From positions 4,631 through 68,630 of the forward strand of contig DEIO01000017.1 in assembly GCA_002352545.1 (NCBI GenBank): a DNA stretch of 64,000 nt, given 5' to 3'. A program made the position numbers and the translations under genes. Source of the stretch: Patescibacteria group bacterium UBA2772 (lineage in GTDB: Bacteria; Patescibacteriota; Minisyncoccia; Moranbacterales; DUUL01). Shown piece by piece: positions 44,410 to 57,540 of the stretch. The notes beneath the pieces were generated by a model. It was not told the origin of the DNA and searched no databases. It saw only the letters and a list, made by a program, of their open reading frames with translations. Each line of letters begins with the position of its first letter. Within the stretch, counting starts at the first letter, position 1.

Positions 44410-44865
44410 TTAGTAGTGATATTCTCTTCCGTTTATAATATTTACCGAACGATAAATTTGTTCTAATAAAACTAATCGAGCCATTTCATGAGGAAGTGTC
44501 ATTTTTGATAAAGATAATTTAGGTAAAGCCAGTTCTTTAATTTCTTGGGAAAAACCAAGTGTACCAGCAACAATAAAAACAATGCATCCTTGGAGGGAAG
44601 ACAGTTGTTTGGCGAATGCTGGTGAATTAAATTCTTGTCCATGTTCATCTAACAGAAAAAAGGAATTATCTGAATTTTTTTTGATATAACCAAGTATTTT
44701 AGCACCTTCCTTTTCTTTTGTTTTTTGTTTATCACTTTCCCTCATAAAAGCAATTGCTGGTAGTTGAAGAATCTCTAGTTTACAGAAAGATCCTAGTCTT
44801 TTTATGTATTCATTGGTCAGATTTTTTATTTCACCTATGGCAACTATCTTTATATTTAAATGCAT
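44410..44865 (-). CDS. rlmH: 23S rRNA (pseudouridine1915-N3)-methyltransferase RlmH
   Basis: SPOUT-type 151-aa protein. IVFIVAGTLGFS...LSLSKMTLPHEMARLVLLEQIYR. Confidence 0.85.
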   Translation of the reverse strand: MHLNIKIVAIGEIKNLTNEYIKRLGSFCKLEILQLPAIAFMRESDKQKTKEKEGAKILGYIKKNSDNSFFLLDEHGQEFNSPAFAKQLSSLQGCIVFIVAGTLGFSQEIKELALPKLSLSKMTLPHEMARLVLLEQIYRSVNIINGREYHY

Positions 44866-44940
44866 AAAAGTATTTAATTGTTTTAGTCATTTTCTTGAGT
44901 ATATAGTATTTTGTATAAAACTATCAACTAAGAAAAGTAA

Positions 44941-44973
44941 ACGGACCTAACTCAAGATTTGAGATAGGTCCGT
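44941..44973 (-). terminator. Strong compound hairpin, probable terminator for a minus-strand transcript
   Basis: ACGGACCTA/TAGGTCCGT outer stem with inner CTCAA/TTGAG stem. On the minus strand it is followed by TTACTTTTCTT. Confidence 0.5.
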
Positions 44974-45278
44974 ATTTGAGGGCCCCTTCCCTCTAATGGC
45001 ACCGTATTATCGATAAAAGTGGCCGCTGCATTGAAAACCGTTGAGTTTGTTGCTGACAATGGTTGTGGTTACCATAATTCCTGTTTCGTCGGTATTTCCG
45101 ATGATGGCATTGTTTTTTTGCCGTTTACGGTAAAACCGTTGGACGAAAAGTTCTTGTGCATAAGCAATTTCTCCTCGATAAAATTGATGTTTGTGTAACA
45201 GATGTCACGCTTCAGATAAGGTACTGCAAGGTTGTTGGGTTTTTCCGAGCGCACAAAGGCACTTTGAAGTAATTTCAA
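44974..45278 (-). other. Unassigned segment: possible gene remnant or ncRNA
   Basis: Listed 69-aa ORF (TTG start) ends at a TAA, and the same frame stays open for 36 more codons up to the hairpin. No recognisable protein or RNA motif. Confidence 0.2.
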
Positions 45279-45440
45279 TTTTATTCCAGTTTAAAGTGTA
45301 GTTAATTGTCAAGTTTTTGTATATTTGCTTCATTCTAACTTAGTTTAGACATAAAATAATGAATGAGGGTGTTACTTTTTTATAAAAAGTTTGTTATAAT
45401 TATTATAGTGTAGTTTTCCAAATAAATAAGCACTGAAGAA

Positions 45441-46124
45441 TTGGAAAAAATGAATAGTATAAATGTAATCCTGACAGTTATCATGTTCACGCTTTTTGCT
45501 GTAGCAGGTCTTTTGGTTAAGTTTCCAGATAAAGGCGATGATTTGATGGTACAACTAGCTAAAGGGCAACTATTTTCAGAAGAAGGGATATATGCAGGAA
45601 ATGTTGAAAATATAGAAGGTACTCTTGAACAAAGAATACCAGATGGAGGTGGTTGGAAAAATGTAGCAGTTGGGGAAAGAATTATCTCTGGTATGGAGAT
45701 TAGAACTTTAGCTGATTCAAAAGCGATTATCAAATTTGATGATGGAAGTATTCTCAAGATGACTGAAGTTTCGCAGATTATTTTTGAAAATAAGTTGTAT
45801 CAAATCAATATAGAGGTAATTAACGGTTTTGTTTATAACGAAGTAGTGTTTTTTGCGTCTAGAAAATATAATGTAAAGACAGGTGATTACAAAATGGAAT
45901 CCACGGAAGGTATCTTTACTATAAATAAAGACTTTCAAGAAGATCCAGAGGTGTTAATTCTTGAAGGACGGATTGATTTATTTTTGCTGGAAGAGAAAAA
46001 AAATGAGTTTGCAAAAGATAGAAAACTTTTTTTAAGATCTGATTCGATTGAGGAACTTGATTTTTCAAAGAATGAACTGCAAAGCGAAGAGATGATTTGG
46101 AGTTTTGATAAAAGAGAAAAATAA
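45441..46124 (+). CDS. FecR-domain membrane protein
   Basis: N-terminal TM helix (INVILTVIMFTLFAVAGLLV; probable ATG start at 45450), then a FecR-like segment WKNVAVGERIISGMEIRTLADSKAIIKFDDGSILKMTEVSQIIF. Confidence 0.6.
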   Translation: MEKMNSINVILTVIMFTLFAVAGLLVKFPDKGDDLMVQLAKGQLFSEEGIYAGNVENIEGTLEQRIPDGGGWKNVAVGERIISGMEIRTLADSKAIIKFDDGSILKMTEVSQIIFENKLYQINIEVINGFVYNEVVFFASRKYNVKTGDYKMESTEGIFTINKDFQEDPEVLILEGRIDLFLLEEKKNEFAKDRKLFLRSDSIEELDFSKNELQSEEMIWSFDKREK

Positions 46125-46250
46125 AAAATACAAGCAAGCAAATTAGTGTGTTCAATGTTATATTCTCGATATTTTTGGATAAAGATGAGTATAACTTTGA
46201 GTATTATTAGTCTGTAATTTAAACAGTAGTTACTCACTGGCATTGTTTTT

Positions 46251-49200
46251 TTGTTTTATAAAAACAGAAGGTTAATAAGAATTTTAGCTAAAGTGGAACA
46301 AAAAAATAACAAAAAAAATAAAAGTTTATACAAAAAACCAAAAAAAGAATCAAGTATTCTTGGCATTTTTGGTTTGTTTCGCAGGAATAAAAAGGTAAAA
46401 AACAGATCAAAGATTGTTTCTAAGCCCCTTGTTGAGAAATCTACTGGTAGCAAACTTGATCAATTTTTGGAAATGCAAAGGGGGGGGAGAAGAGACAGAA
46501 CTGTTTTGGGTTGGAGATTTAGTTTTTTGAAAATTGCCTCTAAGTTTAAAGACTTTGTTTCTGTGGTATCAACATTTGTTTTTAGATTGTTGAAAGTATT
46601 AGTTTACAATTCAAGTTTATTGACTGGTTTAATTGTGGTTATTTTTCTTGTTAGTCCTCTTATTTCTGCAGCTCCACAGTCAAAGGTCATAACTTCTCAA
46701 AATGAATGGGAAAGGGGAGAGGTTTCAAATGTATCTACAACGAGTAAGACCGATTCTATTCAATTGAAGTCAGATGGAACTTGGACTGCACGTGCTTGGG
46801 CGCCAACCGAGGATACTATCGCTTATGGCTCCTCATCTGTTATTGTTGGAAATCACCTATACGTGATTAGAGGATATAGTGATAACGATCTTTATGTTTA
46901 TAATATAGGACTTAATGAATGGGAAGAGACAATTGACCTTCCACAGCCAGCATTTTATGGTGCGGATATTGCATATAATGGCACTGATAAGATATATTTT
47001 ATTTTTGGTGGATATTCAAAAGAGTTTTATTCCTATGATATTGAGAGTAAGAGCTGGGAAAGATTGCCAGAGCTTTTGGATTCTGTTTATTTAGGTGCTT
47101 CAATTGAGTTTGATGGCACAGATTTATATATCAATAGAGGAACGGTGTCGACTGATTTTTGGAAATTTGATATTTCAGAAAACAGTTGGTATAACTTAGC
47201 TCCCTCCCCAGCAACAATTTATCGAGGTGGTAATATGGTCTATGGGGAAAATGGAAAGATGTATGTATTAAGGGGTTATAACCGTGATACTTTTTGGGAA
47301 TATGATATTGCTTCCAATGAGTGGAACGTTCTAGCTGGAGCACCAGGGACATTCTATGGAGAGCAAAAAGGCCTCTATAGAGATGGTTATGTTTATTTTT
47401 TGCGTTCATATAATACTACAGGTTTTTATCGTTATAATATTGCAGGAGATTCTTGGGAGACACTTGAGAACACACCTTTAATAACAGACTATTCTTCATT
47501 GTCCTATGATTCTGATAATGATGAGATTTTTGTTATTAGAGCAGATGGTTCATATAATTTTTGGAAATTTGATCCAACAGAGGGCGCTACTGGCGACTGG
47601 ATAGGACCAGAAAATGTTCCAGGAACGGTTAATAGTGGTGGTGATCTAATTTGGAATGGTGTTTCTGGCGTTGGTAATTATGTTTATGTTGTTCAGGGAG
47701 ATGGAAGGACTGGATTTTTTAGATACGATGTCTCAAATAACACCTGGGACACAATGGCAAATATTCCGGCTACTATGGGATATGACACAAAAGGGACTTA
47801 TCATAATGGATATGTCTATATTGCAAGAGGGGATAATACTACTGGTAATTTTTACCGATATGACGTAGCAGGAGATTCATGGAGTACAATGGCAGTTGCA
47901 CCTGGAACTTTGCGTTACGGCTGTAGTGCAACATATAACGCTTCGGATGGATATATCTACATGACAAGAGGTAATGGGCAGGATGATCTTTATCGTTATG
48001 ATATTGCTGGTGATTTCTGGGTATCAATGGCTGAAATAGTTGCTGATGGAATTAGGTACTATGTTTATTCTGGAGGTAGATTGATTTCTGATGGAACTGA
48101 TTTATATTTGATGCCTGGTGATGGTGAGACTGCATTTTTGAAATATGACACAGCTGGTAATTCTTGGAGTACGCTTAGCAGAATGCCAACAGCTCAGTAT
48201 TATGGTACTGATATGACATATGATGGAAATGGTAAGATTCTAGCTTTGGGGGGAAACTACAAAGATCATACTTGGGAATACGATGTAGTCGGCGATATTT
48301 GGAGAGAATTGCCTTTTAATCAGAAATATGCATACGAAAGAGGAACAGGAACAGGTGCTTCCATTGAGTATGCAGGAAACAATTCCTTCTATGCTACACC
48401 TGGAAATGATTTGACCGATTTTTGGAGCTATACTGCGGGCACAAATAATTTTGTTTCTAATGGAACGTTCATAAGTGAAATATTGGACCTGGGACATGTT
48501 GAAAGTTGGATTTCATTAACCGCAAATGAAAACACACCTTCCAACACAGCTCTTTCATATGAAACAAGATCCTCAAATGATATGAACGGCTGGTCAATAT
48601 GGGAGTCGCTTTCTGGAACAGACATTCAGTCTCCAATGAGAAGGTATTTACAAATCAGAGTAACGCTGACAACTTCTGATGGAGTTAGTACCCCGACTGT
48701 GAATGATTTAACAATTTCATATAATAGCGAAGACGTTGACCCTACTAATCCAGTAACGATTATAGCTTCTTCTGCTAGAGTAGGTGGAGATATTCTAGTT
48801 TCCGGTACACCATATAAACACGCACACCCTTATCTTACTTGGTCTGAGGGTATTGATGCTGGTTCTAGTATCGAAGGTTACTATGTTTATTTTGGAGACA
48901 ATGATTCTGCTGATCCAGAGACAGATGGAATTTTCCAGACATCTACAAGTTTTTCTGTTAATTTAGCTATGGCGACAGGGGAATACTATCTTAGGATAAA
49001 AACAAAAGATAATGACGGGAATGTGACTGATGACGCATGGAGTGCTTTTACATACAACTATAGCGGAGTTTCACCATTTCAAGTTGAAACAAAAACTACA
49101 CAAGCCGATTTTGAAGAAGGAGCTGTTGAGGATATTTCAACTTCAAATGAACCAGACAAGCTACAGTTGGAAGGGGTTGACGGGTTTTGGCAACAAACGC

Positions 49201-52200
49201 TACTTTCAAATGCTCCAGGGACTATTCAAAGAGGCGGAGAACTAGCACTTTCTGATGGAAAATTATATGCATTAAGGGGGAATAATCAAAGAAATTTGTA
49301 CGTATATGATTTAGAGAATGATATTTGGTCTACGCTTAGTGATACTCCTGATACAGTATATTATGGAGGCTCCTTGATAGAGGGGCCAGAAGGATTTTTA
49401 TATGCCTCACGTGGATATAACTCTCCTACATTTTGGATGTATGATATAGAGGCTGACAGTTGGTCTTCTAGTTCCAGTGCTCCAAAAAACTTTACATATG
49501 GTAGTTCATTATCATCAAAAGGTGAGAGATATATCTATGCTTTTCCTGGAAATGATGATGTTTTCTATCGTTACGATACTCAAGAAAATCGTTGGACAAC
49601 CCTGAATAATGCAGAATTTGGAAATCCAAATGAAGGTGATGGACAAAGAGCTTATGTCGGTGGAGACGCAGTTTCTGATGGCGAGAACTATATCTATGCA
49701 TCTCAAGGAAACTATTACCCTTATTTTTCTAAGTATATAATTGAAGATGATGAGGAGAAAGGTGAGGAAGCAGACACTTGGGTTCCTTTAGCTAAATCTC
49801 CGATTGGAGTTTCTTATGGTGGTTGTGTTGCCTATGACGATGAAACCAAGTCAGTTTTTATGCTAAGTGGAAATTGGAGGGACAATTTTTTAAGATATGA
49901 TTCAATAACTGATTCTTGGAATGAGCTGCCAAAGATACCAGCTAGTATAGCTTATGGAACAACAATGAAAGTTGTCGATGGATTTGTCTATGTTCTAAGG
50001 GCAAATAATTCATCTTTATTCTATCGGTTTAATATCGAAGAAAATTCTTGGGAAATTCCACAAAGAGGTCTTTTTGGACCATCTCATCTAGGGACTGGCT
50101 CTACTTTTGATTATTACTATGGATCTGAAATGGAAGAAGATGATAGCGGGAATATCTATATAATACGTGGAGATCATAGCAATGATTTTGGTAGGTATAA
50201 TATTTCTTCAGGAGAATTTGTGATGTTAGATTCTTTACCTGTAGGTGTTTATTATGGTTCTGCAATGGTGTTTAATAAAGACGAAGGTGCTATCTATGCC
50301 TCGGCAGGATCTGGAATAAGAACAAGAGACAATAGCGGAGAGAGTAATTACTTTATGAAATATACAATAGCTACTAATTCTTGGGAAATTATCACAGATG
50401 ATCCCATCCCAGACCAAACTTCATATGGTTCTTCAATGGTTTATGATGGTTCAAGATATATTTATCTTTCAGAAGGATCTAACACGGACGATTGGTGGAG
50501 TTATGATACGCAAGCTGTTTCCGGTTCAAGATGGTCAACTAATTTACCAACCACAAGTGGTCAATTGCAATACTATGGAGGGGAGATGATATATAAAGAA
50601 GTTGGTGGAGTCCCATATATTTATTGGACAAGAGGAGGAACAACAGTATATTTTTTCAAATATAATTTAGATACAAGTACCTGGACGCGGCTTGAGGATA
50701 CACCAGAAACGCTTCAACATGGTGCCTCACTGGTTGATGGTGAAGATGGGTATTTATATACTGCAAGAGGTCAAAATACAGGTAGTTTTTTTAGATTTAA
50801 TATATCAGGTGAAATATGGGAAACCCTGGAGGAGGTCCCGGCACGAGTGTATACAGGCGGAGCAGCAACGTTTGCTAGTGACAGGGTTTGGATGATTGCT
50901 AGAGGATCATATGCCTATACTGATGGTATCTATAGTTATTTGATAGGTTCTCAGGATACAGATACTGGTTTTAAGAAGACAGGAAACTATACATCAGAAT
51001 CAATTGATTTGATTGATGTTTATCGTTGGGGAAATCTAACAGCTAATTATACTTTACCAACAAATACCAGTATTCAGATTTACACAAGAACATCTGGTGA
51101 TGAATCTGAATGGACAACATGGGAACAAGTTTCAAATGAGCAGATATTGAATAATGAACATCGTTTCAATATTTCGTCAGGTGTTAATAGATATCTTCAA
51201 ATTAGAACAGAATTTACTTCTTCGGACAGAATAAAATCACCATTGCTTGAAGATATTACTGTTAATTATTATCAAGATTCTGTAGCTCCAACAAATCCGA
51301 CCGTAGTTAGTGCATATGACACTAGATCTTTAGTTAATTCTCTTGTAACGGATTCGTGGTATGATCATGGGTCGCCTCATTTTGTTTGGCCTAGTGATGA
51401 ACAAGTTGGCGGTGCTAGCGATGGTGTTGGCGGGTCTGGTGTTGTGGGCTACTATGTCTATTTTGGTACAAATGCTTTAGTGGACCCATATCTAGATGGA
51501 ACATTTCAAACTACAAATGAATATACAGCAACAGAGCTGGTCACAGGGCAGAATTATTATCTTAGAATCAAAGCAGTTGATGATGCTCAAATGATTCCAG
51601 CTTCAACATATGCTGCTTTTACTTATAAATATGATGTTACGCCTCCGGAAAATCCGACTAGTATATTAGTTAATCCAGCTGGGTATACAGCTTTTGATAC
51701 ATATGACTTTACATGGAACTCTGATGCAATAGATTTGCATTCAGGGGTTGATCATTTTGAATATCAAACGGGCGGTGATGATCCATCTACATGGGTTGAA
51801 ATAAGTGATCCAGCTACAATCACAATGACACTACCAAGTGTTGATCATGTGGTTGCTGCTTATCAGTCTGGTAAGAATTGGTTCCATTTACGAGTTGTAG
51901 ATGCTGCGGGAAATATTTCAGAAACTTTGAAGCAAGAATATTATTTTAGTGCTAGTGCTCCTTCTCCTCCAAGAAATTTAACGGTGACACCAGAGACTTC
52001 AACTACAAATTCATTTGCATTTCAATGGGAGCAACCAGAATCATTTTTAGGTGATGCATCAAAGGTCTCTTATTTATATTCAGTAAATGCTCTACCTAAT
52101 GCGTATAATACAACAAAGACTGTTGTTAGAGCTGCTGGCCCAGGACCTTTCGCAACGCAGAAAGGGGCAAATAGATTTTATGTCTGTGCTATGGATGAAG

Positions 52201-53771
52201 CTGAAAATGTGGATTACGATCTGTATGCATATGTTGATTTTACTGCTGATACAACTGCTCCTGGTACGCCAGTTAATGTGCAGATATTTGATACATCTGA
52301 TAGAGAAAATCAAGAATATTCAATTGCTATTAAATGGTCACCACCAGCTGCAATTAATGAAGATAATTTTGCTGGATATATAATATATAGAAGTGATGAT
52401 GGAGTTACTTTTGCAGAGATGGCATCTACTTCTGGTAGTGCATATGTAGATACAGAACTTACAAGCAGGTTGTATTATTATCAAGCAAAGTCAAAAGATA
52501 GTACAAATAATGTTTCAGTTGAGTCAACAACTGTTAGCATTCTTCCAACCGGTAGATACACAACAGCACCAAAACTTGTTACAGAACCTTCTCATACTGT
52601 TCAGGCTTATGATGCTGAGATAAAATGGGGAACAAATCGTGTCGCAAGCTCATTTGTGGAGTATGGAAAATCGATGAGCTTTGGAAAAACCAATGGTCAA
52701 GTAGATAGTGTGACTGACCATATTGTTTCTCTTTCAGGGCTGGATGCTGGTTCAAAATATTATTATAAAGCAAAATACATTGATCCAGACGGTAATATAG
52801 GAACAAGTGAAATCTTGAATTTCGAGACTTTACCACCACCAACTATTTCGGAAGTAGAGGTTACTGATATAGGATTAGAGATAGCAACGGTATCTTGGGA
52901 GACGAATACTAGTTCTGCATGTACCTTAAAATATGGAAAAAATTCTACACTGACAGATACAATGGAGGAGAGTTCTTCAGGTGGAGGACATCTTATGAGG
53001 GTAGAAGATCTTGAAAGTACAACAGATTATAATTTTCAAATAGATTGTCTTGATGATGATCTAAATGATTTTAGTTCAGATAGATATAACTTCAGAACAT
53101 TAGAACAACCAGTTTCTTCCGAGTTAATTGTTGAAAACAAAGAAAATGTTGATCTGCCGACGGTAATTGTTAAATATAATACAACTCTTCCTACAAGCAC
53201 GCTTGTTAAATTTAAAACCTTCAATGAAGGTGAGCCTCATAATTATTTGGACAACACTTTTGTAACAGAGCACTCCATTGAATTAGAGGGGCTGATTCCT
53301 TCAGTTGAATATCAGATTAGTGTAGGAGGTATAGCAGAAGATGGCGTGACCGCAACAACGTTAGAGACTAATGTTGTTACAAAAGCTGATAGTAGGCCAC
53401 CAGGAATTGTTTCGAATAGAGCTGTAGGTAGAGTAATTGGAAGAGGTAACGACGCTAGAGCTAATTTGTATATTAAAGTGGAAACAGATGAATTAACTAC
53501 AACAAAAGTATTTTATAGTCCTGGAATTGTTTTGAGTAACTTTGAACAAAGTTCCTCTGAAGATCCCCTAAATACATATCATTTAGTTACAATACCAGTT
53601 GAACCAGGACAAGTTTATAGTTATATAGTTAAGGCATATGATGAATCAGGAAATGAAACCGCAACAAAAGCTGTAACTGTTGTAGTCGAAGATTCAAAGC
53701 AGAATGCAACGGAAATTGTAGTCGGAACTTTTTCTGATAAGTTCAGTTGGATTTCTAAATTATGGGAATGA
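46251..53771 (+). CDS. Giant (about 2,500 aa) N-terminally anchored Kelch-like / FN3-like surface protein
   Basis: Single uninterrupted ORF. Basic ~120-aa N-terminus, one hydrophobic helix (LLTGLIVVIFLVSPLISAAP), two blocks of 12 Kelch-like blades, two homologous ~90-aa modules, and a C-terminal array of FN3-like units. Start uncertain: TTG 46251, GTG 46293 or ATG 46473. Confidence 0.85.
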   Translation: MFYKNRRLIRILAKVEQKNNKKNKSLYKKPKKESSILGIFGLFRRNKKVKNRSKIVSKPLVEKSTGSKLDQFLEMQRGGRRDRTVLGWRFSFLKIASKFKDFVSVVSTFVFRLLKVLVYNSSLLTGLIVVIFLVSPLISAAPQSKVITSQNEWERGEVSNVSTTSKTDSIQLKSDGTWTARAWAPTEDTIAYGSSSVIVGNHLYVIRGYSDNDLYVYNIGLNEWEETIDLPQPAFYGADIAYNGTDKIYFIFGGYSKEFYSYDIESKSWERLPELLDSVYLGASIEFDGTDLYINRGTVSTDFWKFDISENSWYNLAPSPATIYRGGNMVYGENGKMYVLRGYNRDTFWEYDIASNEWNVLAGAPGTFYGEQKGLYRDGYVYFLRSYNTTGFYRYNIAGDSWETLENTPLITDYSSLSYDSDNDEIFVIRADGSYNFWKFDPTEGATGDWIGPENVPGTVNSGGDLIWNGVSGVGNYVYVVQGDGRTGFFRYDVSNNTWDTMANIPATMGYDTKGTYHNGYVYIARGDNTTGNFYRYDVAGDSWSTMAVAPGTLRYGCSATYNASDGYIYMTRGNGQDDLYRYDIAGDFWVSMAEIVADGIRYYVYSGGRLISDGTDLYLMPGDGETAFLKYDTAGNSWSTLSRMPTAQYYGTDMTYDGNGKILALGGNYKDHTWEYDVVGDIWRELPFNQKYAYERGTGTGASIEYAGNNSFYATPGNDLTDFWSYTAGTNNFVSNGTFISEILDLGHVESWISLTANENTPSNTALSYETRSSNDMNGWSIWESLSGTDIQSPMRRYLQIRVTLTTSDGVSTPTVNDLTISYNSEDVDPTNPVTIIASSARVGGDILVSGTPYKHAHPYLTWSEGIDAGSSIEGYYVYFGDNDSADPETDGIFQTSTSFSVNLAMATGEYYLRIKTKDNDGNVTDDAWSAFTYNYSGVSPFQVETKTTQADFEEGAVEDISTSNEPDKLQLEGVDGFWQQTLLSNAPGTIQRGGELALSDGKLYALRGNNQRNLYVYDLENDIWSTLSDTPDTVYYGGSLIEGPEGFLYASRGYNSPTFWMYDIEADSWSSSSSAPKNFTYGSSLSSKGERYIYAFPGNDDVFYRYDTQENRWTTLNNAEFGNPNEGDGQRAYVGGDAVSDGENYIYASQGNYYPYFSKYIIEDDEEKGEEADTWVPLAKSPIGVSYGGCVAYDDETKSVFMLSGNWRDNFLRYDSITDSWNELPKIPASIAYGTTMKVVDGFVYVLRANNSSLFYRFNIEENSWEIPQRGLFGPSHLGTGSTFDYYYGSEMEEDDSGNIYIIRGDHSNDFGRYNISSGEFVMLDSLPVGVYYGSAMVFNKDEGAIYASAGSGIRTRDNSGESNYFMKYTIATNSWEIITDDPIPDQTSYGSSMVYDGSRYIYLSEGSNTDDWWSYDTQAVSGSRWSTNLPTTSGQLQYYGGEMIYKEVGGVPYIYWTRGGTTVYFFKYNLDTSTWTRLEDTPETLQHGASLVDGEDGYLYTARGQNTGSFFRFNISGEIWETLEEVPARVYTGGAATFASDRVWMIARGSYAYTDGIYSYLIGSQDTDTGFKKTGNYTSESIDLIDVYRWGNLTANYTLPTNTSIQIYTRTSGDESEWTTWEQVSNEQILNNEHRFNISSGVNRYLQIRTEFTSSDRIKSPLLEDITVNYYQDSVAPTNPTVVSAYDTRSLVNSLVTDSWYDHGSPHFVWPSDEQVGGASDGVGGSGVVGYYVYFGTNALVDPYLDGTFQTTNEYTATELVTGQNYYLRIKAVDDAQMIPASTYAAFTYKYDVTPPENPTSILVNPAGYTAFDTYDFTWNSDAIDLHSGVDHFEYQTGGDDPSTWVEISDPATITMTLPSVDHVVAAYQSGKNWFHLRVVDAAGNISETLKQEYYFSASAPSPPRNLTVTPETSTTNSFAFQWEQPESFLGDASKVSYLYSVNALPNAYNTTKTVVRAAGPGPFATQKGANRFYVCAMDEAENVDYDLYAYVDFTADTTAPGTPVNVQIFDTSDRENQEYSIAIKWSPPAAINEDNFAGYIIYRSDDGVTFAEMASTSGSAYVDTELTSRLYYYQAKSKDSTNNVSVESTTVSILPTGRYTTAPKLVTEPSHTVQAYDAEIKWGTNRVASSFVEYGKSMSFGKTNGQVDSVTDHIVSLSGLDAGSKYYYKAKYIDPDGNIGTSEILNFETLPPPTISEVEVTDIGLEIATVSWETNTSSACTLKYGKNSTLTDTMEESSSGGGHLMRVEDLESTTDYNFQIDCLDDDLNDFSSDRYNFRTLEQPVSSELIVENKENVDLPTVIVKYNTTLPTSTLVKFKTFNEGEPHNYLDNTFVTEHSIELEGLIPSVEYQISVGGIAEDGVTATTLETNVVTKADSRPPGIVSNRAVGRVIGRGNDARANLYIKVETDELTTTKVFYSPGIVLSNFEQSSSEDPLNTYHLVTIPVEPGQVYSYIVKAYDESGNETATKAVTVVVEDSKQNATEIVVGTFSDKFSWISKLWE

Positions 53772-54580
53772 TGAAAAAAGTAAAAAAAGAAGAAGGTATT
53801 AGTAAGACCAGTGTATTGCATGGTCTAGAAAATAGAAATCACAAAAGAGCAACCTCTGAGTTATATACAGAAAAAGAGGGGGTTGTGGTTGTTAGTAATG
53901 TAAAAAAGCATTTTATAGTTGGTGATAACAATATCTCAGTTCTAGATGGTGTTGGACTAAAGATAAAACAAGGAGATTTTGCAATGTTAGTTGGTCCTTC
54001 GGGTTGCGGAAAATCAACACTTTTACATATTGTTTATGGTCTAGAGGCACCAACTGAGGGAGAAGTTTTCATTAAAGGTACAGATATCTGGAAGCATACC
54101 AAAAACTGGAGAGCGGATTTTAGAAATAAAGGGGTTGGGTTTATTCCACAACAAGCATTTTGGTTAAAATCTTTGAGTGTTTTGGAGAATGTTGCTGTTC
54201 CTTCGATAATTGGAGGATTAAAATTTCATGAAGGTCTGGAAAAGGCTGCTCAAATGCTTGAATTAGTAGGAATGAGCCAGTGGTCAAAGCATAGACCTTT
54301 TGATCTCTCTGGTGGACAACAGCAAAGAGTTGCTCTTGCTAGAGCACTTTTATTAAATCCCTGGTTTATAATTGCCGATGAACCAACTGGAAACTTGGAT
54401 CATAAGTCAGGAGTTGAACTTATGGATTTAATAAAACAATTAAATGATAGGTTTGACATAACAATATTAATGGTCACACATAATCCTGAACAATATGCCT
54501 ATGCAACAAAGGTATTTAAAATGTTAGACGGACAGATTGCGGAAGTTGTTGAGAATAAAAAGAGAAAGTTAAAAAAATAA
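53762..54580 (+). CDS. ABC transporter ATP-binding protein (MacB/LolD/FtsE-like)
   Basis: Walker A GPSGCGKST, signature LSGGQQQRVALARAL, Walker B IIADEPTGNLD. The in-frame ATG at 53768 forms an ATGA overlap with the giant gene's TGA (53769-53771). Confidence 0.93.
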   Translation: MGMMKKVKKEEGISKTSVLHGLENRNHKRATSELYTEKEGVVVVSNVKKHFIVGDNNISVLDGVGLKIKQGDFAMLVGPSGCGKSTLLHIVYGLEAPTEGEVFIKGTDIWKHTKNWRADFRNKGVGFIPQQAFWLKSLSVLENVAVPSIIGGLKFHEGLEKAAQMLELVGMSQWSKHRPFDLSGGQQQRVALARALLLNPWFIIADEPTGNLDHKSGVELMDLIKQLNDRFDITILMVTHNPEQYAYATKVFKMLDGQIAEVVENKKRKLKK

Positions 54581-54582
54581 AA

Positions 54583-55824
54583 ATGAAGTTAGCTTTTTGG
54601 AAAAAAGAAAAATACTCTAAAATCAAATTGTACATGATTATTTTTCTTAGTTGGAGAAATCTTCGTGTTAACAAAACCAGGTCTTTTTTAACGGTTGGTG
54701 GTGTTGCTTTGGGTATTGCTATAATATCTTTTTTGCTTTGTATTGGTTTTGGTATTCAAGGAATGATTATCGATGAAGTTACTAAAAATAATCCTCGAGA
54801 TGTAATGGATATTAACAATGGAAACTTAGACAATTTCGTTACATTGAATGATAGCTTTATTGAGAAAATTCAAAATATAGAGAATGTTGAAAAAGTTACT
54901 AGGCAGGTTAATACTGGAGGAAAATTGGAATATAATGATTCCCAGATTGATATTGTTATTTATGGAGCAAATCGTGATTACTTAGAGCTTGCCAAGATTC
55001 CTTTTGAAGAAGGAGACAAAAAATTCGAAGACGACAAAGGTGGTATAATAGCATCTATGCAAATCGCAAATATTATGGGACTAGATGATCCTAAGGAGCT
55101 TATCGGGAAAAAAGTAAAAATAGACGTCGTACTTTCAAAAGAAATCAGCTCAACGATTAAAGAGGAAACGACTGCTACTGGAAATGAAGTTGAGATTATA
55201 GGAATCTCTCACTCAACCAATTCAATTGTGTATATGCCGTTTTCTTATTTGAATCAAGAGTTCGGTATTGATTCTGCTCAGAAAGGAAAAATCTTAATGA
55301 AGGATCCAAATATAATGGCCACAGCAGAGCTAGCTGTACAGCATTTAGGTTTTTTAACAGAGAGTGTGAACGAAATAATAGAAGATATCAATAGTTTTTT
55401 TGTGGTTATTAGAATTATTATGATAATTCTAGGAACAATTATTATGTCTATTTCAGCGATGGGTATGTTAAATACGCTTAGTATTTCTCTTCTGCAGAGA
55501 ACTAAAGAGGTTGGAATTTTGAAAGCTCTAGGAGCGAAAAGAGAAGACATATTTAAAATGTTTATTTTTGAAGCAATTTTGATTAGTGTTGTAGGAGGAT
55601 TAATTGGTCTATTTAGTGGTTATGGAATAGCTTTTGGTGCTAATAAGTTGCTTATTTATCTAGCAAATAATAATGAAGTTGAACTTTCTTACTTTGTTTA
55701 TATACCTTATTACTTTATTGCGGCAATTGCTTTCTTTATTCTTTTTCTTGGTCTTATTACAGGGATTATGCCAGCTCAACGTGCAGCAAAGATTCATGCA
55801 TTAGATGCACTTCGCTATGAATAA
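54583..55824 (+). CDS. ABC transporter permease, FtsX/MacB type
   Basis: TM1, a ~230-aa extracytoplasmic domain, then three C-terminal TM helices with LQRTKEVGILKALGA and the terminal PAQRAAKIHALDALRYE. Starts 2 nt after the ATPase stop. Confidence 0.9.
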   Translation: MKLAFWKKEKYSKIKLYMIIFLSWRNLRVNKTRSFLTVGGVALGIAIISFLLCIGFGIQGMIIDEVTKNNPRDVMDINNGNLDNFVTLNDSFIEKIQNIENVEKVTRQVNTGGKLEYNDSQIDIVIYGANRDYLELAKIPFEEGDKKFEDDKGGIIASMQIANIMGLDDPKELIGKKVKIDVVLSKEISSTIKEETTATGNEVEIIGISHSTNSIVYMPFSYLNQEFGIDSAQKGKILMKDPNIMATAELAVQHLGFLTESVNEIIEDINSFFVVIRIIMIILGTIIMSISAMGMLNTLSISLLQRTKEVGILKALGAKREDIFKMFIFEAILISVVGGLIGLFSGYGIAFGANKLLIYLANNNEVELSYFVYIPYYFIAAIAFFILFLGLITGIMPAQRAAKIHALDALRYE

Positions 55825-55850
55825 GAGCGGATACTATTTTAAATAAAAAA

Positions 55851-55873
55851 ACACTCCAATGGAGTGTTTTTTT
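55851..55873. terminator. Bidirectional terminator between the ABC permease and glgP
   Basis: A7-ACACTCC-AAT-GGAGTGT-T7. Confidence 0.8.
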
Positions 55874-55893
55874 ATTTAAAAGTAGGTTTATTT

Positions 55894-57540
55894 CTATGGT
55901 GTCCAAATTTTTTCTTGATACTCATTGACTAGTCTATGAGTATTAAAATAACTCACAAGTGAAACAGCACTTTTCATTCTTTCTTGCCACTCTTCTTCTT
56001 TATTGTAATAACAATCAATCAAGTTCTCTAATTGATTTAATAAAGCCTTTGAGTCATGAGTATCTTGATCTTCTCCTTGAGCGAAAGGTTCATTTCCAAA
56101 GGCCCATCCAGCCTTATTGTTCATATTAAATCCTTCAATCCACCACCCATCTAATATTGATAGATTTAATCCTCCATTCAAAGATGCTTTCATGCCACTT
56201 GTACCACTGGCTTCTCTTGGTGGAATGGGATTGTTTAACCATACATCACAACCAGAAATTAATTTCTGAGCAACCTCCATATTGTACTTTGTTAGCATCA
56301 CAGCTCTAATTTGACCACGTAACATATAAGAATACTTTTCTACATCTTTTTTAATTTGGTTGCAGAAGGAATCTCCTTCATGACAATTTCCAGCAAAAAC
56401 AAGTTGTATTTTTCGATAGCCAATATTTCGTAGCCTCTCTAGGTTTTTAAAGATAAGAGAATGTCTTTTGTAGGGAACATATCTACGAGCAAATCCAATG
56501 GTTAGAGTTTTGACACCAAAATAATCATCATCCTCAATCTTTTCAAAAGGGAATAGTTCTTTCTGATTGTTCAGCCAGTCAACCAGAACCTTTTTTTGAT
56601 TTTTGTGTGCCTCAACTAGTTTTAAAGAGTCTAGTTTTTTGGTCGCTTCTTTTAACAAACCAGGATTTTCTTCCCAACTAGGAAATGTTTCATCTAAAAG
56701 TTGTTTCATGTTCTTTCCAACCCAACGAGGATGATAGATTCCATTGGTAACATTTTTAAAGTCATGACGAGGAAACATTTCTTCACAAACTTCGCGATGT
56801 TTAGCAGAAACACTATTGGAAACACGACTTAGATTCAGCGCTAAGTCAGTTGTGCTTAGGTCTTGATAGGTCGCATGTTCCTTAATGTCCATTGGAATGG
56901 CTTTATTCATAGTGCTATAAGCAAGGCCGTATTCAAAATGATCATGTCCAGCAGGCACAGGAGTATGTGTTGTAAACGTACACAATTCCTTTACTTTTTT
57001 TGCGTCGTAGCTGTGTTTCTTTAGCAATTCAAGTGTCAATAAAGATGAGTGACCCTCATTCATATGGAATGTATTGATATTTGTATAACCAAGAGCTTCT
57101 AATGCTCTTACGCCAGCTATTCCTAGAATTATCTCTTGTCCTAAACGAGTGTATCTATCGGCTGCATATAAATACTTAGTTAAATCCCTATCCCATTCTT
57201 TGTTGTCTGGGTGGTTGCTACTAAGAAATATAATAGGGATTATTTTCTCACTTTTTCCTTTTAAATCTAGTTCCCAAATTACTATTTTTACTTTTCTTCC
57301 TTCAATTTCAACTTCTACTGTTTGGTCGTTTTTGTTTAAAAATTGTTCTGCTTTAAATCTCTTTCCCTCGTCTTCACTTTGATGATAAAACAAAGAAACA
57401 CCGACCACGTCACTTCCTAAATCGGCACAAGAGTGAAGTGTATCCCCGGCTAGTATTCCTAGGCCTCCTGCGTAGTTTGGAATTGAATTTTGTAGGGCTA
57501 TCTCCATTGAGAAATATGCTGTAGTTTGTATTTTTTTCAC
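55894..57540 (-). CDS. glgP: Alpha-glucan phosphorylase (GT35, short type)
   Basis: GGLGILAGD near the N-terminus and PLP-lysine region EASGTSGMKASLNGGLNLSILDGWW. Confidence 0.85.
   Translation of the reverse strand: MKKIQTTAYFSMEIALQNSIPNYAGGLGILAGDTLHSCADLGSDVVGVSLFYHQSEDEGKRFKAEQFLNKNDQTVEVEIEGRKVKIVIWELDLKGKSEKIIPIIFLSSNHPDNKEWDRDLTKYLYAADRYTRLGQEIILGIAGVRALEALGYTNINTFHMNEGHSSLLTLELLKKHSYDAKKVKELCTFTTHTPVPAGHDHFEYGLAYSTMNKAIPMDIKEHATYQDLSTTDLALNLSRVSNSVSAKHREVCEEMFPRHDFKNVTNGIYHPRWVGKNMKQLLDETFPSWEENPGLLKEATKKLDSLKLVEAHKNQKKVLVDWLNNQKELFPFEKIEDDDYFGVKTLTIGFARRYVPYKRHSLIFKNLERLRNIGYRKIQLVFAGNCHEGDSFCNQIKKDVEKYSYMLRGQIRAVMLTKYNMEVAQKLISGCDVWLNNPIPPREASGTSGMKASLNGGLNLSILDGWWIEGFNMNNKAGWAFGNEPFAQGEDQDTHDSKALLNQLENLIDCYYNKEEEWQERMKSAVSLVSYFNTHRLVNEYQEKIWTP

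Follow-up and report, generated by a model that had tools for sequence, protein, structure and literature searches.

The question raised by the locus described here is how a protein of some 2,500 residues, encoded by a single gene of an ultra-small bacterium, is built, and with which machinery of the cell it works. The gene lies in a stretch of 64,000 nucleotides (the window, meaning the whole of the DNA that was analysed) from contig DEIO01000017.1 of Patescibacteria group bacterium UBA2772, the genome of which comprises 1.2 Mb in 31 contigs with ~33% G+C. It occupies positions 46251..53771 of the + strand, on which all features given below are located, and has 2,506 codons from a TTG start as listed; the database record of the protein begins 14 codons later, at codon 15 (P0002, 2,492 residues). 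Named relatives are found in Moranbacteria/Parcubacteria-group Patescibacteria, the family is annotated as ‘hypothetical’ only, and full-text literature searches yielded no description of the protein family or of its operon. A life spent attached to other cells is ascribed to ultra-small Patescibacteria, the attachment machinery of which is mostly unknown. The reading favoured here, with a probability of about 0.62, is that the giant protein carries duplicated Kelch heads on a conserved tail and is a partner or client of the type VII ATP-binding cassette (ABC) machine encoded next to it.

The giant gene is followed by an ABC ATPase gene (53762..54580), the start of which overlaps its end by 10 nucleotides, and by a gene for a permease with MacB_PCD and FtsX domains (54583..55824). 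The ATPase is LolD/MacB/FtsE-like, and the closest solved relatives of the permease are YtrF, MacB, and Spr0695. The order of these genes was compared in 76 orthologous loci. The ATPase gene is directly downstream of the giant gene in 72 of them, and in the other four the contig ends at the giant gene; thus all 72 loci with downstream DNA have the ATPase (35-84% identity), with reading frames that often overlap or nearly abut. The permease was found in 68/76 loci, and the upstream side of the giant gene was not conserved across them. A free-standing adhesin beside an ABC transporter with a task of its own, for instance efflux or the export of peptides, would make this synteny merely historical, and MacB-type pumps are indeed common efflux systems. 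Adjacency without exception where downstream DNA exists is hard to square with such a history, however, as are the same adjacency in distant relatives that share the tail alone and, by contrast, the complete lack of conservation upstream, so that a free-standing adhesin was considered very unlikely.

The part of the protein nearest to the ATPase gene is also its best-conserved part and the one common to a wider family, namely a tail of seven FN3/Ig-like domains (residues 1799-2479, 51645..53687). An AlphaFold2 model of the last 717 residues (1790-2506) gave a predicted local distance difference test (pLDDT) score of 88.2 and a predicted template modelling (pTM) score of 0.41, a low value of the kind expected when domains are strung like beads. 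Seven beta-sandwich domains (1799-2479) are followed in the model by a terminal helix (2486-2504), and together they account for the ‘7-8 further FN3-like units’ of a preliminary description of this DNA. Foldseek matched the model to FN3/Ig arrays, including those of titin/MyBP-C, gp130, and contactin; a sequence comparison of the tail with the PDB gave nothing significant. Pfam fn3 reached 48.9 bits (cut-off 25), and Pur_ac_phosph_N reached 33.6 bits (cut-off 30) on the C-terminal piece. The helix (53706..53762) is amphipathic, reads ATEIVVGTFSDKFSWISKLW, and bears a family-wide motif ending in G/S-W.

The distribution of the tail was determined in 301 genomes sampled evenly from the phylum. 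Matches were present in 47 genomes, and the two-supermodule protein was present in five, the window's genome included; most of the other matches cover only residues ~1570-2504. When the loci of 16 such tail-only matches were fetched, the heads of the genes were found to be LamG, DUF2341, or almost none (proteins of 782 and 691 residues), and the ATPase and FtsX genes adjoined a tail-bearing gene in 14/16. No such pair was seen in the DNA fetched for loci L093 and L099. Locus L100 combines one Kelch supermodule with the tail and the ABC pair, and is thus a single-supermodule relative of the kind for which a search had been proposed. Tail-family proteins all begin with a basic region and one transmembrane segment, and nearly all end in an amphipathic helix of the form ...D(L/I)(I/V)xxSLxxx(L/F)GW(L/I)F. 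Across Patescibacteria, the constant part is therefore the FN3 tail with its GW helix, usually beside an ABC pair, and the heads vary (two Kelch supermodules, one, LamG, DUF2341, or none). By these sequence comparisons the Kelch supermodules are a swappable head. The link between stalk and ABC pair had been missed by the preliminary description, and is a stronger and less ordinary regularity than the duplication on which that description was centred.

Some loci carry tail-family genes in clusters, and in these tandem arrangements only the last gene of the run abuts the ABC pair. Two or three such genes, encoding 1,321-1,575 residues each, stand in tandem in L084, L093, and L094. In L094 the pair follows the last of three tail genes only, and in L084 each of two tail genes has its own ATPase and FtsX pair. 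The ATPase reading frame of L100 has a length of 645 residues. In ten Microgenomates loci (L044, L046, L047, L050, L058, L063, L069, L074, L077, and L078) the FtsX match is located ~2.1-2.5 kb after the giant gene, compared with ~0.8-1.1 kb elsewhere, which suggests an extra gene or a longer permease between the ATPase and FtsX.

By its predicted domains, the ABC pair of the window belongs to type VII (MacB/FtsX fold), the definition of which is a permease with FtsX and MacB_PCD plus an ATPase (FtsX 70.6 bits, MacB_PCD 60.5, ABC_tran 114.1). It could be assigned neither to FtsEX nor to LolCDE at the equivalog level, since the transporter falls below every NCBIfam equivalog cut-off, including those of FtsX, LolCE, and MacB: FtsX models gave 27.8-33.1 bits against 225-255, FtsE 169.9 against 264.85, lolCE 73.7 against 362, and LolD 218.5 against 307.75. 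A tripartite system of the MacAB kind was likewise not recognised, as the ten neighbouring genes scanned include no HlyD-family membrane-fusion adaptor. In operons of the macA-macB and yknX-yknY-yknZ types the adaptor gene precedes the ATPase and permease genes, and the giant gene occupies this upstream position in place of an adaptor gene.

At the N-terminus of the protein, a poorly conserved basic region (residues 1-112, 46251..46586; 31 K/R against 7 D/E in the first 110) precedes the sole hydrophobic segment of the giant protein (residues ~113-140, 46587..46670), which would be a membrane anchor or a signal that is not cleaved. Neither a lipobox nor a cleavage site is evident in this N-terminal segment, the sequence LISAAP having Pro after small residues. 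Given one hydrophobic segment and a basic N-terminus, a single-pass topology is predicted in which the protein is anchored at its N-terminus, the basic region probably lies in the cytoplasm, and the remainder would be outside the cell. An ABC pair beside such a protein might be a LolCDE-like extractor or exporter that frees the N-terminal anchor or delivers the protein to an outer envelope layer, with the tail helix as a sorting signal. That the ATPase has its best NCBIfam match in LolD (218 bits), and the permease in MacB/LolCE, would suit an extractor, as would the adaptor position of the giant gene and the combination, in every family member, of a basic N-terminus, one transmembrane segment, and a C-terminal ...GW helix. 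The scores lie far below all equivalog cut-offs, however, and the absence of an evident lipobox or cleavage site at LISAAP is not what an extractor would lead one to expect; the present data do not separate extraction from actuation of the protein by the pair, and extraction was held to be rather unlikely.

Ahead of the tail, the giant protein consists of two colinear copies of one supermodule, each made up of a leader, 12 Kelch units, a beta-sandwich of ~95 residues, and an FN3-like unit. In copy A these are the leader (residues 141-183, 46671..46799), which has 3-4 short beta strands ahead of the propellers, the array of four-stranded Kelch units A1-A12 (184-734, 46800..48452), the sandwich (735-828, 48453..48734), and the FN3-like unit (829-944, 48735..49082). 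Copy B has a leader homologous to that of A (945-984, 49083..49202), Kelch units B1-B12 (985-1574, 49203..50972) with longer loops in B4, B7, and B8, a homologous sandwich (1575-1676, 50973..51278), and an FN3-like unit (1677-1798, 51279..51644). Both FN3-like units contain PTNP ... GYYVYFG; these strings and the two post-propeller module strings quoted in the preliminary description were found where it had placed them, and the segmentation yields 12 + 12 blades at the positions at which it had counted them by eye. The strict blade motif [FLYW]x[YF][DNT]x(4-12)W matched 19 times in residues 141-1800, 11 times in block A and 8 times in block B, whereas shuffles averaged 2.1 matches and never exceeded 6. 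The five remaining blades are degenerate: A12, B7, and B12 end in F, B4 has a 15-residue acidic insert, and B8 begins with MKYT. Pfam Kelch_6, Kelch_1, and Kelch_2 matched the giant protein above their cut-offs at expect values (E) of 3e-32 to 1e-16; the scores in bits (cut-off in brackets) were 109.8 (25.3) for Kelch_6, 76.0 (20.1) for Kelch_1, 59.9 (21.3) for Kelch_2, and 55.8 (22.0) for Kelch_3.

Self-comparison bore out the duplicated supermodule of ~800 residues that had been proposed. Residues 160-942 and 961-1799 align colinearly with 28% identity over 854 columns (E 2e-70; BLASTP with compositional adjustment). Compared part by part with shuffles, the leaders share 33% identity (z 7.7), the Kelch arrays 32% (z 17.8), the sandwiches 40% (z 17.4), and the FN3-like units 41% (z 17.3); similarity is thus highest outside the repeats. 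Kelch blades align mutually in any register, and the likeness of A and B might thus have been merely generic Kelch similarity, or else an artefact of assembly. Generic similarity does not extend to non-repeat flanks that are 33-41% identical in the same order and form two clean clades, however, and an artefact does not recur in more than 100 independent assemblies; the clades and identity of the flanks refute this explanation, which keeps almost no probability.

The age of the duplication was estimated from orthologues. A pattern scan of 185,579 species genomes led to 294 confirmed loci, which include Roizman-, Woese-, Shapiro-, and Collierbacteria with 35-38% identity over almost the full length; there are more than 110 full-length orthologue clusters, with 38-71% identity and about 2,370-2,670 residues. 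All 24 blades are kept in 53/53 full-length orthologues, from Moranbacteria to Microgenomates, with no loss or gain of a blade, and the tail measures 713-740 residues in these proteins apart from one outlier of 863. In a tree of the non-Kelch parts (leader, sandwich, and FN3-like unit) of the same 53 orthologues, A and B are reciprocally monophyletic, with a Shimodaira-Hasegawa-like approximate likelihood ratio test (SH-aLRT) value of 100. The two clades and the constancy of the 24 blades indicate one duplication, older than the split of Moranbacteria-type and Microgenomates orthologues, with both copies retained since. A recent duplication was ruled out because the copies lack nucleotide similarity, blastn between them giving chance-level matches only; this comparison, which had been suggested for dating the event, marks the duplication as old. 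As the two-cassette form has remained unchanged over deep divergence, it may be argued that both supermodules are needed.

The blades themselves retain no signal of a register between the two copies. Blade-position profiles were built from 111 orthologues, and the blade-by-blade matrix of Ai against Bj showed no diagonal (mean 46 on, 51 off, permutation p 0.98); in profile alignments of the blades only, shifts of one or two blades scored as well as or better than the in-register alignment. Blade-for-blade correspondence of A and B was rejected, since single-sequence, profile-profile, and blades-only alignments were all without a register signal, and an internal 6 to 12 duplication within an array was rejected because pairs i and i+6 were not raised. 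The order in the ‘ordered’ duplication of the preliminary description is accordingly shown by the non-Kelch flanks and the equal number of blades, and not by the blades. Within-array pairs such as A5/A8 and B5/B8 exceed every same-position A/B pair in similarity. Certain non-adjacent blades are unusually alike, and they stand at matching positions in the two arrays (A5/A8 and B5/B8; A2/A11 and B2/B11); the A blades of such pairs are unlike the B blades. When the within-array similarity patterns were compared by a Mantel test, r was 0.35 and p 0.065, with no signal when blade 12 was left out.

What was duplicated might accordingly have been a smaller cassette, consisting of the leader, a few blades, the sandwich, and the FN3-like unit, with each Kelch array reaching 12 blades independently or being homogenised; two closed six-bladed propellers could be the stable end state. 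The matrix without a diagonal, the good scores of shifted registers, and the A5/A8 and B5/B8 likeness would all be expected from such a course. It was nevertheless regarded as unlikely: the number of blades is equal, at 12 and 12, and fixed in 53/53 orthologues, single leader/~12-blade/sandwich cassettes recur in unrelated proteins (46 cases; P0133), and a register signal may be saturated at ~30% identity. A duplication of the whole block is supported by the flanks and by the equal blade number, and not by orthology of blades.

The unrelated proteins also help to define the cassette. The sandwich of ~95 residues has no Pfam match and no PDB sequence relative. Its profile, compared against 1.84 billion representatives, retrieved 4,719 proteins (E <= 1e-3), each with between one and ten copies of it, among neighbours that include Calx-beta, LamG, GH16, and other domains; it often follows LamG, GH16, Calx-beta, or Kelch modules. 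By this profile search, the sandwich is assigned to a large uncharacterised domain family without a Pfam model. It is taken to be an autonomous domain because it is repeated in tandem with a period of ~95 residues in P0180, and the same tandem copies disfavour a ‘split sandwich’ in which the leader would complete the sandwich around an inserted propeller pair. The leader and sandwich bracket variable inserts, with peaks of leader-to-sandwich spacing at 160-320 and 560-620 residues, the second of which corresponds to 12 Kelch units. Lone leader/12-Kelch/sandwich cassettes occur in unrelated proteins such as P0133, P0130, and P0137, and the 46 cases mentioned above have the 560-620 residue spacing; this recurrence suggests that the 12-blade cassette moves as one unit. 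The value of the duplication is that it defines this portable cassette, composed of leader, 12 Kelch units, and sandwich.

A further protein, P0132 (L081:4708-8610; 1,300 residues), was rejected as a one-supermodule orthologue, having Kelch and FN3 but no sandwich match. Its prepilin-type N-terminus (KKGFSVVEV...) and its location in a type IV pilus operon with T2SSE, T2SSF, and several N_methyl pilins place it in a separate system, as a candidate for a giant minor pilin or for an adhesin at the pilus tip.

Whether 24 blades form four propellers or two giant rings was addressed with an AlphaFold2 model of copy A (residues 141-950), based on a 53-sequence alignment of the orthologous pieces. 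The model is all-beta (pLDDT 92.4, pTM 0.78) and has, in its Kelch part, ~48 strands for the 12 units and a non-beta stretch of ~23 residues after unit 6. Its top PDB matches in Foldseek are tandem double propellers (BT4663 sensor domain, Gemin5, LRP6 E3E4, and AIP1), in keeping with the beta-propellers predicted in the preliminary description. A designed six-bladed Kelch protein superposes on the model with a template modelling (TM) score of 0.72 normalised by target, and the copy A profile matches PDB entries of KLHL/KEAP1 Kelch domains, which are six-bladed, at E ~1e-13. The tandem double propeller matches and the strand pattern of this model favour two six-bladed propellers per supermodule, and hence probably four in total.

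On the reading that the giant protein serves the type VII ABC machine as extracytoplasmic partner, or is its client, the machine would recognise the tail and terminal helix. ATP-driven movement of the outer domain of the permease could then actuate the giant protein, as FtsEX does with its partners, or could place or release it in the way that Lol handles lipoproteins. The four Kelch propellers would form a variable ligand-binding head, with ligands that are most likely glycans or structures on the surface of a host or partner cell; the idea of glycan binding derives from the BT4663 architecture and from a weak match to a Kelch mutarotase family. The duplication would place two binding units in series, and a bivalent or extended binding structure, as envisaged in the preliminary description, is plausible. 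Were the terminal helix to turn back to the membrane or the permease, the giant protein would be tethered at both ends. More tentatively, and as something possible rather than probable, the tail and GW helix could serve as a module for docking or sorting that a dedicated MacB-type motor reads, in a head-swappable surface apparatus found throughout Patescibacteria in which cytoplasmic ATP hydrolysis would mechanically actuate, deploy, or release a host-engaging arm of ~2,500 residues.

Several points weigh against the partner or client reading. The sole lead to a ligand is the NCBIfam Kelch-type mutarotase match, which scores 64 bits against a cut-off of 243. The propellers adjoin the membrane anchor and the stalk lies beyond them, an order opposite to that of a classic stalked adhesin. 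Contact between tail and permease is suggested only by synteny and co-conservation of the helix, and the division into 2 x 6 blades per supermodule, like any packing of the leader against the sandwich, only by the Foldseek matches and strand pattern of the copy A model. The gene is also patchy in the window's own order, in which 26/81 genomes have a match and only about 11/81 the full-length form, and for that reason it is accessory rather than core.

The remaining features of the locus lie outside the conserved unit or concern single orthologues. Upstream of the giant gene, a gene for a FecR-domain membrane protein (45441..46124) was rejected as part of the unit, since only the two closest relatives, in which the giant protein shows about 70% identity, have it as well. 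A promoter/terminator scan of 44800-56200 gave counts not above those of shuffles. Two full-length orthologues (G294:C7:26636-33745 and G349:C14:8778-16049) contain one in-frame TAG each, which could be a sequencing error, a sign of a pseudogene, or read-through. One orthologue (L079:12680-12700, and also L080) was called as two open reading frames of 902 and 1,497 residues. A natural split of the gene at the supermodule border was ruled out there, as the frame shifts by 1 nucleotide at a G6 run within blade B1, away from the border; two assemblies from a single study have this break in common, which points to an assembly error or a slippery homopolymer.

Among known systems, the six-bladed Kelch propellers of KLHL/KEAP1 and of bacterial NanM-type mutarotases resemble the Kelch units in their Pfam Kelch matches, PDB profile matches, and the superposition of the six-bladed design, but here 12 units form a probable tandem pair, twice over, BTB/BACK are lacking, and the mutarotase score is far below cut-off. 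The best structural match of copy A is the periplasmic sensor BT4663 of a Bacteroides hybrid two-component system (PDB 4a2l; Foldseek E 2e-16 over 899 columns), which has the same order of a double propeller followed by a beta-sandwich (Ig-like in BT4663) and offers a precedent for glycan binding. The TM score is only 0.29-0.31 at 11% identity, however, the propellers of BT4663 are seven-bladed and of another repeat family, and BT4663 belongs to a signalling kinase rather than to a surface protein with an ABC partner. ROS1/Sevenless, LRP6, and FN3 stalks such as the GhpA fragment 9flw show a similar alternation of propellers and FN3 or a beads-on-a-string tail, and are matched by both models, but at 8-13% identity this is an architectural analogy only.

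A further comparison is with type VII ABC transporters that act with an extracytoplasmic partner (FtsEX with EnvC, PcsB, CwlO, or RipC; MacB with MacA; LolCDE with LolA). These share with the present pair a separate ATPase, a four-transmembrane FtsX-fold permease with a large MacB_PCD outer domain, and one tight gene unit with a membrane-anchored extracytoplasmic protein, the partner gene being upstream as in operons of the macAB and yknXYZ types. The systems differ in that the partner proposed here is an all-beta protein of ~2,500 residues, composed of propellers and FN3 domains, rather than a coiled-coil activator or membrane-fusion protein; no hydrolase domain was found in it. Internal duplication is of a known kind, being an ordinary growth route of large surface proteins. 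What would be new is a type VII ABC system in which the extracytoplasmic partner is very large and modular. The protein family, which keeps its length and domain order closely, shows a clear division of labour between a constant tail tied to the type VII ABC machine and exchangeable heads ahead of that tail. If the coupling of tail and machine is true, the mechanotransmission principle of FtsEX and MacB would extend to a new class of very large partners.

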